A stretch of DNA of 64,000 nucleotides from Escherichia coli (GTDB taxonomy: Bacteria; Pseudomonadota; Gammaproteobacteria; Enterobacterales; Enterobacteriaceae). The stretch is from the NCBI RefSeq assembly GCF_965641715.1, contig NZ_OZ282453.1; one strand, given 5' to 3'. The notes under the pieces are model-generated. The model had not been told where the DNA came from. It made no database searches and saw nothing but the letters and a program-made list of their open reading frames with translations. Positions 7,131 to 46,371 of this stretch are shown piece after piece. A program made the translations under genes and the position numbers. The stretch's first letter is position 1. Every line of letters begins with the position of its first letter.

Positions 7131-7480
7131 TGTCGGATGCGGCGTAAACGCCTTATCCGACCTGGATCCCCGTAGGCCGGACAAGACGCAAAGCGTCGCC
7201 TCCGGCATGGATGCGCCGAATGTCGGATGCGGCGTAAACGCCTTATCCGATCTACATTTCCGTAGGCCGGACAAGACGCGTAAGCGTCGCCTCCGGCATG
7301 GTGCGCCGAATGTCGGATGCGGCGTAAACGCCTTATCCGACCTGAATCCCCGTAGGCCGGACAAGACGCGTAAGCGTCGCCTCCGGCATGGTGCGCCGAT
7401 TGTCGGATGCGGCGTTAACGCCTTATCCGACCTACACTCTCGTAGGCCGGACAAGACGCGCAGCGTCGCCTCCGGCATGG
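7131..7480. repeat. REP/BIME array: four tandem pairs of repetitive extragenic palindromes in alternating orientation
   Basis: Units TGTCGGATGCGGCGTAAACGCCTTATCCGACC and CGTAGGCCGGACAAGACGC...AGCGTCGCCTCCGGCATGG each recur four times with about 95-nt periodicity between gabP and gabT. Confidence 0.9.
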
Positions 7481-21700: not shown

Positions 21701-23378
21701 CGTCTACGCAGGTACGCTGGCGGATGCATCGGTCAGTGGCGCGACAGGAAGCCTGTCGTTAATGACGCCACGGGATAATGTTACGCCAGTTAAACTCGAA
21801 GGGGCGATCCGGATTACCGATAGCGCGACATTAACTATCGGCAATGGCGTTGATACGACGCTTGCCGACCTGACGGCTGCCAGCCGGGGCAGTGTCTGGC
21901 TTAACAGCAATAATTCCTGTGCAGGCACCAGCAACTGCGAGTATAGAGTAAACAGTTTGCTACTTAACGACGGTGATGTTTATTTATCAGCACAAACAGC
22001 AGCGCCAGCCACAACTAACGGTATATACAATACGCTGACAACCAATGAACTTTCCGGTAGCGGTAATTTCTACCTGCATACCAACGTTGCAGGCTCCCGG
22101 GGCGATCAACTGGTCGTCAACAACAACGCCACTGGTAATTTTAAAATCTTTGTTCAGGATACCGGCGTCAGCCCACAGTCTGACGACGCGATGACGCTGG
22201 TGAAAACAGGGGGAGGGGATGCTTCGTTTACGCTGGGCAATACCGGCGGTTTCGTTGATCTTGGGACCTATGAGTATGTCCTGAAAAGTGACGGCAACAG
22301 CAACTGGAACCTGACCAATGATGTCAAACCCAACCCGGACCCCAACCCAAATCCCAACCCAAATCCCAACCCAAATCCGAAGCCAGATCCAAAACCAGAC
22401 CCAAAACCGGATCCGAAACCAGACCCGACTCCCGAGCCAACGCCGACACCCGTTCCGGAGAAACGCATCACGCCTTCTACCGCAGCCGTACTCAATATGG
22501 CAGCAACATTACCGTTGGTATTTGATGCTGAGCTAAACAGTATTCGCGAGCGGTTGAACATAATGAAAGCGAGTCCACGCAACAATAATGTCTGGGGGGC
22601 GACGTATAACACCCGTAATAATGTCACCACCGATGCGGGGGCCGGGTTTGAGCAGACGCTGACCGGAATGACAGTGGGGATCGACAGCCGTAATGATATT
22701 CCTGAGGGGATTGCGACGCTGGGCGCTTTTATGGGTTATTCCCATTCACATATCGGTTTTGATCGCGGAGGATATGGCAGTGTGGGCAGTTATTCTCTGG
22801 GCGGCTATGCCAGTTGGGAACATGAAAGTGGTTTCTATCTGGACGGTGTCGTGAAGCTGAACCGTTTTGAAAGTAACGTAGCCGGTAAAATGAGCAGCGG
22901 TGGAGCCGCCAATGGCAGTTACCACAGCAACGGGCTGGGCGGTCACATTGAAACCGGGATGCGATTTACCGATGGTAACTGGAACCTGACGCCGTATGCA
23001 TCGTTAACGGGGTTCACCGCTGATAACCCCGAATATCATTTATCCAATGGCATGAAATCGAAATCAGTCGATACCCGCAGTATATATCGTGAACTGGGCG
23101 CAACGCTGAGTTACAACATGCGTCTGGGAAACGGTATGGAAATTGAGCCGTGGCTGAAGGCGGCTGTGCGCAAAGAATTTGTCGATGATAACCGGGTGAA
23201 GGTGAATAATGACGGTAATTTCGTCAATGATTTGTCGGGCAGACGTGGAATATACCAGGCAGGTATTAAAGCCTCATTCAGCAGTACGTTAAGCGGGCAT
23301 CTCGGGGTGGGGTATAGCAACGGTGCCGGTGTGGAATCCCCGTGGAACGCGGTGGCTGGTGTGAACTGGTCGTTCTGA
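18771..23378 (+). CDS. ypjA: YpjA-like AIDA-I-type autotransporter adhesin (about 1535 aa): signal peptide, repeat-rich passenger, Pro-rich linker, C-terminal beta-barrel
   Basis: ORF 18651-23378; probable start MKFMNRTSPYYCRRSVLSLLISALIYAPPGMA (signal peptide) with RBS; passenger built of degenerate ~19-residue repeats; PNPDPNPNPNPNPNPKPDPKPDPKPDPKPDPTPEPTPTP linker; terminal ...GVGYSNGAGVESPWNAVAGVNWSF. Confidence 0.88.
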   Translation: MKFMNRTSPYYCRRSVLSLLISALIYAPPGMAAFTPDVIGVVNDETVDGSQRVDERGTTNSTHIINHGQQNVYGGVSNGSLIESGGYQDVGRHNNYVGQSNNTTINGGRQSIHDGGISTGTTIESGNQDVYKGGISNDTTIKGGNSHISGGTANGTIIDGGSQRVTTQGHVDSTTINKSGSQDITQGSLATNTTINGGRQYVEQSTVETTTIKNGGEQRVYESRALDTTIEGGTQSLNSKSTAKNTQIYSGGTQIVDNTSTSDVIEVYSGGVLDVSGGTATNVTQHDGAILKTNTNGTTVNGTNSEGAFSIHNHVADNVLLENGGHLDINAYGSANKTIIKDKGTMSVLTNAKADATRIDNGGVMDVAGNATNTIINGGTQNINNYGIATGTNINSGTQNIKSGGKADTTIISSGSRQVVEKDGTAIGSNISAGGSLIVYTGGIAHGVNQETGSALVANTGAGTDIEGYNKLSHFTITGGEANYVVLENTGELTVVAKTSAKNTTIDAGGKLIAQKEAKTDSTRLNNGGVLEVQDGGEAKHVEQQSGGALIASTTSGTLIEGTNSYGDAFYIRNSEAKNVVLENAGSLTVVTGSRAVDTIINANGKMDVYGKDVGTVLNSAGTQTIYASATSDKANIKGGKQTVYGLATEANIESGEQIVDGGSTEKTHINGGTQTVQNYGKAINTDIVSGLQQIMANGTAEGSIINGGSQVVNEGGLAENSVLNDGGTLDVREKGSATGIQQSSQGALVATTRATRVTGTRADGVAFSIEQGAANNILLANGGVLTVESDTSSDKTQVNTGGREIVKTKATATGTTLTGGEQIVEGVANETTINDGGIQTVSANGEAIKTTINEGGTLTVNDNGKATDIVQNSGAALQTSTANGIEISGTHQYGTFSISGNLATNMLLENGGNLLVLAGTEARDSTVGKGGAMQNQGQDSATKVNSGGQYTLGRSKDEFQALARAEDLQVAGGTAIVYAGTLADASVSGATGSLSLMTPRDNVTPVKLEGAIRITDSATLTIGNGVDTTLADLTAASRGSVWLNSNNSCAGTSNCEYRVNSLLLNDGDVYLSAQTAAPATTNGIYNTLTTNELSGSGNFYLHTNVAGSRGDQLVVNNNATGNFKIFVQDTGVSPQSDDAMTLVKTGGGDASFTLGNTGGFVDLGTYEYVLKSDGNSNWNLTNDVKPNPDPNPNPNPNPNPNPKPDPKPDPKPDPKPDPTPEPTPTPVPEKRITPSTAAVLNMAATLPLVFDAELNSIRERLNIMKASPRNNNVWGATYNTRNNVTTDAGAGFEQTLTGMTVGIDSRNDIPEGIATLGAFMGYSHSHIGFDRGGYGSVGSYSLGGYASWEHESGFYLDGVVKLNRFESNVAGKMSSGGAANGSYHSNGLGGHIETGMRFTDGNWNLTPYASLTGFTADNPEYHLSNGMKSKSVDTRSIYRELGATLSYNMRLGNGMEIEPWLKAAVRKEFVDDNRVKVNNDGNFVNDLSGRRGIYQAGIKASFSSTLSGHLGVGYSNGAGVESPWNAVAGVNWSF

Positions 23379-23538: not shown

Positions 23539-23901
23539 TGGTGGAGCTGGCGGGAGTTGAACCCGCGTCCGAAATTCCTACATCCTCGGTACTACATGCT
23601 TAGTCAGTCTTTACATTCGCTTGCCAGCTGCGGACGGACACGCCACTAACAAACTAGCCTGATTAAGTTTTAACGCTTCAACCCCAGGCAGGGCTTCCAC
23701 GCGATCTCTTTTGGGTTTGACCTCTCTTGATCCCCGTCCTAAGAGCGGAGGCTAGGGAGAGAGGGCTCTAAGCAGGTTATTAAGCTGCTAAAGCGTAGTT
23801 TTCGTCGTTTGCGACTATTTTTTGCGGCTTTTTACGAGGCCAACCGCCCCTCGGCATGCACCTTGGGTTTCGCAAATCCCGTCGAATCCAGAATCAGCCC
23901 C
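23539..23901 (-). ncRNA. ssrA: tmRNA (SsrA), 363 nt
   Basis: Reverse complement matches the recalled E. coli tmRNA from 5' GGGGCUGAUUCUGGAUUCGACGGG... through the tag-encoding region to the 3' ...GGUUCAACUCCCGCCAGCUCCACCA. Confidence 0.97.
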
Positions 23902-41638: not shown

Positions 41639-41661
41639 AGTGTTGCCTTTTTGTTATCAAT

Positions 41662-41688
41662 AAAAAAGGCCCCCCGATTTGGGAGGCC
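41662..41688 (-). terminator. pheA attenuator terminator
   Basis: Minus-strand hairpin GGCCTCCC-AAATC-GGGGGGCC followed by TTTTTT, between pheL and pheA. Confidence 0.85.
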
Positions 41689-41736
41689 TTATTGTTCGTC
41701 TTCGCATTCTGTTTCATACGACGAAACGCCTCCCAT

Positions 41737-41784
41737 TCAGGGGAAGGTAAAAAAGAATGCGAAGAAAAACGGTGTGTGTTTCAT
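41737..41784 (-). CDS. pheL: pheA leader peptide (Phe-rich), 15 aa
   Basis: Manual translation of the minus strand gives MKHTPFFFAFFFTFP-stop with seven Phe codons, classic attenuation leader. Confidence 0.9.
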   Translation of the reverse strand: MKHTPFFFAFFFTFP

Positions 41785-41840
41785 GTTTGTTTCCTTAAGT
41801 GACTTTAGTACAGTACCCGTACTGTTTTCACGCTGTCAAC

Positions 41841-46049: not shown

Positions 46050-46371
46050 GAAACCAGAGCATGCACACACAAAAAAACCGCTTGCCATGCCGCAATCAGT
46101 CAGGTTACATTTTCGCTGCACCTCATAAAACGGGTGCCGGGTTTCGCAGCCTGCTGACAACCAAAGCGCACAACCGCGCCAGCGGTTTTTTTGTGCGTAC
46201 TGTATTGCCACGTTTTTTTCGCGTCAGAATTATGGCGGGGCGTACGGGGCCGACTTCGGTCGGGCCGGGTTCTTTGGTTGCCGGTACTGCGAACCCCGTA
46301 CGTCTCGCCACCCACAGTTTCGCAGCTCTGGATGGTGAGTTTTCAAAACTTACAACCAAAGAGGCCACACC

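Follow-up and report, generated by a model that had tools for sequence, protein, structure and literature searches.

The ypjA (ehaD) gene in a 64,000-nt stretch of Escherichia coli DNA, referred to here as the window, contains an in-frame tandem repeat of X-Pro codons whose copy number differs between isolates by whole units. We consider it probable that this coding VNTR specifies an unstructured stalk, that its length changes by slippage or exchange of repeat units, and that it serves for the most part as a neutral, length-tolerant spacer. Full-text literature searches found no account of the YpjA linker or of its polymorphism.

An X-Pro tract between the autochaperone domain and the barrel of YpjA

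The repeat lies in frame in an open reading frame (ORF) at 18651..23378 (+). The ATG at 18780 is the probable ypjA start, which gives an intact coding sequence of 1,532 aa plus stop at 18780..23378 (+). The initial annotation had assigned the repeat to YpjA, and comparison with annotated genomes supports this: the ORF is 94 to 98.5% identical to genes in complete E. coli genomes annotated as "adhesin-like autotransporter YpjA/EhaD" (98.5% over 4,728 nt for the best annotated match), the neighbors DUF5507-ypjA-ssrA-smpB are common to the window and the annotated genomes, and 25 kb are collinear with strain A30. Judged by identity and chromosomal neighborhood, the ORF is the ypjA ortholog. YpjA has been associated with biofilm formation (PMC9289746).

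Domain searches and an AlphaFold model of a YpjA fragment gave the order of parts. By inspection, MNRTSPYYCRRSVLSLLISALIYAPPGMAA at the N-terminus looks like a signal peptide. The passenger, at 18870..21947 (+) with approximate edges, matches the Pfam AIDA repeat (PF16168) in 11 stretches (E = 8.6e-145), and NCBIfam Ag43/AIDA-I models match it in part, with scores under their equivalog cutoffs. It is followed at 21948..22316 (+) by a Pertactin-type autochaperone (junction) domain, aa 1057-1179 (PF03212, E = 2.4e-45), which matches the PDB sequences of pertactin (1dab) and Vag8 (7akv) and whose modeled β-strands run to fragment residue 130 (aa 1179). Farther downstream, a predicted α-helix plugging the barrel pore (aa 1232-1262, 22473..22565, +; fragment residues 183-213, pLDDT about 90) aligns with the part of the BrkA translocator (3qq2) that contains its N-terminal helix. 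The outer-membrane β-barrel itself occupies aa 1270-1532, 22587..23375 (+), with an Autotransporter β-domain match (PF03797, E = 1.7e-45, aa 1271-1510), a TIGR01414 score of 336 bits (cutoff, 16), and modeled strands at fragment residues 221-482. The model, helix then barrel, has a mean pLDDT of 83.5 and is consistent with a C-terminal 12-stranded translocator behind a pore helix, while the profile matches point to an AIDA-repeat β-helical passenger with a Pertactin-type autochaperone domain.

The X-Pro tract sits exactly between the autochaperone domain and the pore helix plus barrel, so that the proposal of a linker between passenger and β-barrel was borne out. It spans 22326..22457 (+) and consists of 22 unbroken dipeptides, 44 aa (aa 1183-1226), reading KPNPDP(NP)6(KPDP)4TPEPTPTPVP. 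The initial annotation located it correctly at 22327-22450, slightly short at the 3' end, and gave five NP dipeptides after PNPDP, one fewer than the sequence contains. Across 2,000 shuffles of the protein, the maximum run was 3 consecutive XP dipeptides (mean, 1.6) versus the 22 observed, and 22 of the 38 prolines of YpjA fall within the tract. In the model, no secondary structure is assigned to the tract, and its pLDDT stays below 50 (fragment residues 136-176, aa 1185-1225); such low confidence would fit an extended rod but is no evidence for one.

At the DNA level, units run head to tail well above chance. Tandem Repeats Finder (TRF) reported a period of 12 twice, for an array of 5.6 copies scoring 83 and one of 6.4 copies scoring 70, and self-identity within the tract is 0.75 at a lag of 12 versus 0.59 at a lag of 6. 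The longest perfect period-12 stretch is 38 nt of CCCAACCCAAAT (3.2 copies, 22341-22378), of which three full copies at 22341..22376 (+) encode (PN)6 and form the copy-number-variable core. An imperfect 12-nt array at 22377..22424 (+) encodes (PKPD)x4 with alternating synonymous codons (the 6.4-copy TRF array, 84% matches). The remainder, 22425..22457 (+), is a nonrepetitive Pro-rich tail, PTPEPTPTPVP, which is kept in all ypjA alleles and in the paralog described below, with D/E/A substitutions. Hence the tandem repeat originally described as hexanucleotide type is real, with an effective unit of 12 nt (or 6 nt); the 8-mers CCCAACCC (four occurrences), CCAAATCC (three), and AAACCAGA (two) are only pieces of the 12-nt units. 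Besides the tract, TRF arrays scoring at least 50 occur at only two other places in the window. A 15-nt repeat lies at 17802-17840 (TRF score, 57), and a 90-nt REP-type array lies near 7.1 to 7.5 kb.

Three other interpretations of the region were rejected. A minus-strand ORF at 22268..22630 (120 aa) is not a gene, since it translates into a low-complexity string (G-F/S/L-G) that mirrors the repeat. Matches of the tract to TonB (NF008084, 20 bits against a cutoff of 315) and to Trypan_PARP (PF05887, 40 bits against a cutoff of 100) are compositional only.

Tract length among ypjA alleles

E. coli genomes and metagenome contigs together showed seven tract lengths in ypjA proper, from 28 to 48 aa, in steps that are multiples of 6 nt, and an alignment of 10 alleles likewise showed indels within the tract only in 6-nt multiples. 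The linker thus varies between isolates, as had been predicted, and the observation named in advance as contradicting this, an identical repeat number across diverse strains, was not what we found. A census by anchored DNA pattern covers ypjA proper only, because alleles whose left flank differs, such as the paralog (NNV-NP...), escape it. Over 54 metagenome contigs in this census, the inner length was 80 in 39, 74 in 9, 86 in 5, and 56 in 1, and this set held 18 tract DNA haplotypes; a 36-aa derivative of the K-12 type and the 48-aa class were found beyond it. Allele counts, which rest on sampled rows and identity bands rather than on all genomes, were as follows for records matching at 99% or more: K-12-like, 38 aa, 1,266 of 2,525; 36 aa, 323 of 2,525; O157-like, 40 aa, 267 of 2,525; and O55:H7-like, 44 aa, 10 of 2,525. 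A BLAST query across the IS1203 junction of O157:H7 was split at the IS end, leaving 40 records with at least 80% coverage.

Copy number differs by whole units, and it has done so repeatedly on single backgrounds. Across E. coli ypjA, CCCAACCCAAAT is present in 1, 2, 3, or 4 copies, and PKPD units have been gained or lost in K-12-type alleles. Within the O55:H7/O157:H7 clone, DEC5B has four copies, other O55:H7 strains have three, and O157:H7 has two, although their 367 flanking nt are identical. The K-12-type haplotype occurs with 80 nt and with 56 or 50 nt, with 0 differences in 316 flanking nt, and the allele of strain 027_SK3 is the K-12 type minus 6 nt. Altogether, at least five changes involve whole repeat units alone with no flanking difference. 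The expectation that the array is prone to expansion and contraction therefore holds in that unit-wise changes occur on identical flanks. Among 29 ypjA-proper contigs whose flanks are identical, 28 have a single length, and in its 1- to 4-copy state the array appears lineage stable rather than hypermutable.

Repeats are error prone in long-read or low-coverage assemblies, and one rare allele comes from a contig of about 4x coverage, so sequencing or assembly of a low-complexity region might in principle have produced the variation. We regard this as extremely improbable, as hundreds of independent complete genomes contain identical alleles, the differences are always exact 6-nt multiples made of defined units, and sibling isolates (ETEC6333, 6334, and 1701; ETEC4070 and 4071) share alleles. 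The rare allele itself, L059, could be an assembly error.

Throughout, the register is kept: proline occupies every second codon in all ypjA alleles, in the paralog, and in the closest relatives, with K, N, D, I, T, A, or E at the alternate position. Those relatives, taken from a protein search, include partial proteins named E. albertii. Among about 80 sequences of ypjA alleles and the paralog, none had an out-of-frame tract. Gain and loss of units in a tandem repeat within a surface-protein gene recall phase-variable contingency loci, but the units here are 6 or 12 nt, multiples of 3, and so do not produce on/off frameshifting; we therefore rejected an on/off contingency locus. Unlike such loci, moreover, the window's array is short and lineage stable.

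A paralog with longer arrays between ymgJ and minE

A YpjA-like paralog, of which K-12 keeps a remnant pseudogene, sits between ymgJ and minE. It shares with YpjA the C-terminal architecture, the tail DPTPEPTPTPVP, the position of the tract, and AAC/AAT-CCN units, but its passenger is shorter (about 1124-1150 aa) and the KPDP block is absent. Its tract is (NP)18-38, 48 to 88 aa, with perfect arrays of 86 to 110 nt, and its best 60 records contain 15 length classes. Five pig isolates with 0 differences in 400 flanking nt have five different array lengths. Copy number shifts in two perfect subarrays only, while interspersed variant units stay put. Several of the expanded alleles are pseudogenes.

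The flanks of ypjA and the paralog are 90 to 95% identical, enough for conversion, and both genes are present in some genomes. In addition, tract haplotypes in ypjA covary with flanking SNPs (the K-12 type has PIPN, CCT ACT, and a downstream T variant), so the pattern between strains partly reflects inheritance or exchange of whole alleles. It is nevertheless quite unlikely, in our judgment, that the lengths arose mainly from imported alleles or from gene conversion between the two genes rather than from local slippage. At least five changes comprise whole units only within identical flanks, and the confinement of paralog changes to two perfect subarrays is the mark that local gain and loss of units leaves.

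A probable length-tolerant stalk

In the reading we prefer, 6-nt (X-Pro) and 12-nt (PNPN or PKPD) units would encode an unstructured, probably extended polyproline II (PPII)-like stalk linking the β-helical passenger and autochaperone domain to the helix in the outer-membrane barrel. As it would join the passenger side to the barrel helix, the stalk should lie surface exposed, immediately above the barrel; if extended, 28 to 88 aa would measure roughly 9 to 27 nm. Whole units would occasionally be added or removed when identical units slip during replication or undergo unequal exchange through short homology. Sequence comparison makes slippage a plausible mutational mechanism, although comparative data cannot separate it from short-homology recombination. 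Because the units are 6 or 12 nt, frame and X-Pro register would always be kept, and the protein would therefore stay functional while the stalk shifts in length (28 to 48 aa in ypjA, 48 to 88 aa in the paralog). The longer the perfect array, the higher the rate of change would be: slow at the three copies of the window and fast in the 7- to 12-copy arrays of the paralog.

A PPII rod conformation is suggested by the X-Pro pattern together with the precedent of TonB, whose proline-rich spacer, (EP)n-(KP)n, is thought to be a rigid PPII rod and is dispensable for core function (PMC9022066). That spacer resembles the YpjA tract in its alternating X-Pro sequence with charged X residues, but it is not homologous, is periplasmic rather than surface exposed, and is not known as a VNTR. 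A closer counterpart in position is found in TibA, an AIDA-type autotransporter that groups phylogenetically with YpjA (PMC9289746) and a self-associating protein of ETEC, which has an extra proline-rich domain (residues 627-677) between the junction region and the membrane-embedded domain (PMC3835316). We draw this likeness from the published description of TibA.

In Bordetella pertactin, the repeats form part of the passenger instead of following the autochaperone domain. Those in its regions 1 and 2, GGFGP and PQP, differ in copy number between isolates (PMC3966384). Their likeness to the YpjA tract is that they are repeats of an autotransporter passenger and that the PQP repeat is Pro rich; in addition, the YpjA tract comes immediately after a Pertactin-family domain. 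The pertactin units are 5 aa (GGFGP) and 3 aa (PQP) versus 2 or 4 aa in YpjA. Vaccine-driven selection has been discussed for pertactin; no counterpart is known for the YpjA tract.

Tolerance of both length and loss argues for near neutrality. In a protein-database search, YejO-type homologs that share the Pertactin and barrel architecture of YpjA lacked a Pro-rich tract. This search returned mostly partial proteins and paralogs and, because of its clustering at 90% identity, was unfit for an allele census; we used it only for the presence of the tract in relatives and its absence in the YejO type. The gene itself is often broken: O55:H7 carries a frameshift, an IS interrupts the copy of O157:H7, and that of LR-24 is truncated. 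At least 80% of ypjA is present in only 2,436 of 5,426 genomes. The frequent pseudogenes and the paralogs without a tract indicate weak selection. Since the longest ypjA alleles (O55:H7) lie in frameshifted pseudogenes, as do several expanded paralog alleles in pseudogenes of their own, length also changes without selection on the protein. Given these tract-free homologs and the many pseudogenes, the tract is best read as a tolerant spacer in which slippage is nearly neutral.

Unstructured in the model, the tract directly precedes the pore helix and follows the autochaperone domain, a position that would also suit a role in secretion, with an unfolded segment threading first through the barrel or BAM during hairpin formation and its length irrelevant beyond a minimum. 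We hold this to be very unlikely: the YejO family and other close homologs have the same architecture without a Pro-rich tract, so secretion by this route does not depend on the tract.

The strictly conserved proline register means that the tract is not junk, and its length could also matter. Stalk length might be under diversifying or directional selection, through reach past LPS O-antigen or capsule or as an immunodominant surface repeat of the kind suggested for the pertactin repeat regions. The tract is predicted to be unstructured and outside the barrel, its register stays strict while length spans 28 to 88 aa over ypjA and the paralog, the paralog array varies between closely related pig isolates, and variation in pertactin repeat number is a documented precedent (PMC3966384). 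We nonetheless think such tuning unlikely, considering that the longest ypjA alleles and several expanded paralog alleles are pseudogenes, that homologs without the tract exist, and that the common alleles are stable at the lineage level. Rather unlikely, too, is a bolder version in which the X-Pro arrays of the YpjA family are selected "evolvable rulers," with slippage variants matched to O-antigen or capsule thickness or to antibody escape and the (NP)n paralog generating diversity within clones.

The tract represents an ordinary repeat polymorphism, a known kind of feature in a known gene, and raises no new biological question. Because the length differences are real and not errors, the arrays are a warning for assembly and annotation. 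The ypjA array, and above all the (NP)n array of the ymgJ-minE paralog, are useful markers for strain typing, and the hypervariable generic E. coli MLVA locus CVN016 may correspond to the paralog array. On physical grounds, the length of the stalk might influence "adhesin reach," as initially suggested; if it did affect projection of the adhesin, it would provide a simple, heritable, and reversible means of retuning it without altering the binding domain.

Repeat structure and gene context

Just one long open reading frame (ORF) covers the position of the tract (18651..23378, plus strand), and the tract is in frame with it; translation from the ATG at 18780 gives a 1,532-aa protein with a signal-peptide-like N terminus. 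The X-Pro tract itself (22326-22457, plus strand; aa 1183-1226) reads KPNPDP(NP)6(KPDP)4TPEPTPTPVP, a run of 22 uninterrupted dipeptides that accounts for 22 of the 38 prolines in the protein; the longest X-Pro run in 2,000 shuffles of the protein was 3 dipeptides. The Pro-rich linker repeat described in the initial annotation is therefore present, with the sequence at 22200-22600 as described and the frame kept, but the peptide had been given one NP too few and an end coordinate a few bases early. The repeats had also been called hexanucleotide-type, with 8-mers listed as units; the DNA period is instead 12, as judged from self-identity (0.75 at lag 12, 0.59 at lag 6) and from Tandem Repeats Finder, which returned period-12 arrays with scores of 83 and 70. 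A perfect array of CCCAACCCAAAT x3 without mismatches (38 nt from 22341, plus strand) is followed by four imperfect units of the form CCN-AAR-CCN-GAY.

DNA identity of 94-98.5% to genes that complete E. coli genomes annotate as "adhesin-like autotransporter YpjA/EhaD", together with 25 kb of collinearity with strain A30 (gabDT, lhgO, glaH, an amylase gene, a tRNA, DUF5507, ypjA, ssrA and smpB), bears out the assignment of the gene as YpjA. Pfam places 11 AIDA repeats, a Pertactin domain (aa 1057-1179) and an autotransporter beta-domain (aa 1271-1510) on the protein; the tract occupies the gap between the latter two, so its proposed location between passenger and beta-barrel also stands. NCBIfam agrees on the barrel, and its matches to Ag43 and AIDA-I are partial and below threshold. 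The core-genome stretch 8001-33000 reaches at most 98.7% identity among 5,426 E. coli complete genomes, the best match being the baboon strain A30; the source strain would therefore come from a lineage absent from that set, or from Shigella or a different Escherichia lineage.

Just two further arrays in the 64-kb window reach a score of 50, a REP-type one with a 90-nt period and a weak one with a 15-nt period. The first (7131-7480; 3.9 copies, 91% matches, with Rfam naRNA4 [CssrE] matched three times on the minus strand) is a REP/BIME-type cluster flanked by the amylase-family gene and the tRNA. The second (17802-17840; 2.6 copies, with a score of 57) is at the 3' end of a DUF5507-family ORF (16495..17868). 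ARAGORN calls the tRNA at 15668-15743 tRNA-Met(CAT), and the syntenic A30 gene is annotated tRNA-Ile; it is presumably a lysidine-modified tRNA-Ile2 (ileX/ileY type). The tmRNA gene ssrA (23539-23901, minus strand) lies 160 nt 3' of ypjA with no prophage in the gap; in K-12, prophage CP4-57 is integrated at ssrA. Further along is the Phe leader pheL (41660-41785). Rfam matches to isrK (an Hfq-binding sRNA) and C4 antisense RNA, next to each other at 46118-46315, point to an element of phage origin near 46 kb.

Length variation in ypjA

Alignment of 10 alleles from complete genomes revealed indels solely in multiples of 6 nt, all within the tract. A metagenome census, using an anchored pattern that matched all alleles collected by then, yielded 54 contigs with inner lengths of 80 nt (n=39), 74 nt (n=9), 86 nt (n=5) and 56 nt (n=1). 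Contigs and genome hits together gave seven length classes, with inner lengths of 50, 56, 74, 80, 86, 98 and 110 nt corresponding to X-Pro runs of 28, 30, 36, 38, 40, 44 and 48 aa, and at least 18 DNA haplotypes; repeat number thus varies between isolates, as had been predicted. In allele-specific searches (match at ≥99%), the K-12-like 38-aa allele was found in 1,266 of the 2,525 records with the region, the 36-aa allele resembling that of comparison locus L006 in 323, the O157-like 40-aa allele in 267 and the O55:H7-like 44-aa allele in 10. The 44-aa length of the window's tract is therefore uncommon; among the matches listed, it occurs in O55:H7, in TX 265-1 (labelled O157:H7), in 2013C-4465 and FDAARGOS_946 (no serotype label), and in two pigeon strains and one poultry strain.

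Within the O55:H7/O157:H7 clone, CCCAACCCAAAT is present in four copies in DEC5B, three in other O55:H7 genomes and two in O157:H7, with no differences across 367 flanking nt. K-12-type alleles are shortened by 6 nt in 027_SK3, 24 nt at locus L059 and 30 nt in LR-24 and RM14721, with no flank differences where measured, and the L051 allele carries a 6-nt duplication of CCAAAT. Length changes of this kind are the mark that slippage by whole units, or exchange through short homology, would leave. Twenty-nine metagenome contigs have identical flanks of 800 nt, and 28 of them had the same length; tract length is also uniform in large clones. The ypjA array in the window's state does not appear to be hypermutable.

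A hypervariable paralogue and insertions in the tract

Searching with the K-12 allele turned up one record spanning 126 extra bases, which proved to be a paralogue, annotated "ypjA", between ymgJ and minE (~1124-1150 aa; L073:3991-7437 in ETEC4069 and L074:3991-7365 in AST20). In K-12, a 344-nt pseudogene remnant is all that is left at this site (L083:5985-6328). The paralogue's tract, NNV(NP)n DPTPEPTPTPVP, is encoded by (AATCCG AACCCA)2-9 + (AATCCA)6-12, with perfect stretches of up to 110 nt. Eight genomes had NP counts of 18, 22, 24, 27, 32, 34, 35 and 38, five pig isolates had five different paralogue lengths with 0/400 flank differences, and the best 60 records fell into 15 length classes, each a multiple of 6. 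Change is faster in the longer perfect arrays, matching the prediction for slippage. The paralogue array may be the hypervariable MLVA locus CVN016.

IS1203/IS629 was found within the Pro-rich tract itself, at a position corresponding to window ~22424/22425. In ypjA of O157:H7 H6437 (L065:3762-5073), the element follows ...AAACCAGAC, with a 3-bp duplication of GAC; in the paralogue of O139:H1 W13-16 (L072:~967 onward), it follows ...AATCCAGATC at nearly the same place in the opposite orientation. These insertions at the repeat-block end of two paralogues are two independent hits; a target preference or gene conversion may account for the shared site. In the O55:H7 lineage, ypjA is annotated as frameshifted, at 4,727 nt versus 4,728 nt in the window (L066, CB9615; L001, 2013C-4465; L067, TX 265-1; L084, DEC5B). 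TX 265-1, labelled O157:H7, carries the O55:H7-type three-copy frameshifted allele without the IS, which suggests that the one-unit loss and the IS insertion both came later than the serotype switch.

Predicted structure, constraint and comparison with known systems

An AlphaFold model of aa 1050-1532 (alignment of 38 sequences; mean pLDDT 83.5, pTM 0.77) has beta-strands up to aa 1179, no secondary structure at aa 1185-1225 (pLDDT <50), and a confident helix at aa 1232-1262 followed by the barrel. The regions on either side of the tract have sequence matches to the end of the pertactin passenger and to the translocators of BrkA and Vag8. The pore helix of solved autotransporter translocators has its N terminus toward the cell surface, from which we infer that the tract would form an extracellular stalk joining barrel and beta-helix. 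Fully extended as polyproline II (~0.31 nm per residue), its 44 residues would span roughly 13-14 nm.

The X-Pro register is constrained, because Pro is kept at alternate codons throughout all alleles, the paralogue and the closest protein-search relatives (some named E. albertii), while the X positions vary. As for length, YejO-type homologues have the same Pertactin and barrel architecture without the tract; O55:H7 ypjA, which has the longest alleles, is frameshifted; many O157:H7 have the gene disrupted by IS1203, and other strains have it truncated; and at least 80% of it is present in only 2,436 of 5,426 genomes. Our preferred reading is therefore a spacer that tolerates differences in length and drifts mostly neutrally, over a strong role for exact length. 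The change in adhesin reach proposed in the initial annotation would be a hypothetical physical corollary of stalk length.

The nearest positional analogue is the proline-rich domain of TibA, between its junction region and membrane domain (PMC3835316); TibA and YpjA belong to a common autotransporter group (PMC9289746). Repeat-number polymorphism is shared with pertactin, whose GGFGP and PQP repeats are a well-known case in an autotransporter passenger (PMC3966384), and the X-Pro rod of TonB, PPII-like and non-essential (PMC9022066), is a physical analogue, not a homologue. Our literature search found no description of the ypjA tract polymorphism. Because its units preserve the reading frame, the locus falls outside a strict definition of contingency loci. 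Collectively, these data confirm the feature, the gene call and the predicted variability: the tract is a coding VNTR, of an ordinary kind, in a surface protein already known, where it makes up a Pro-rich linker.
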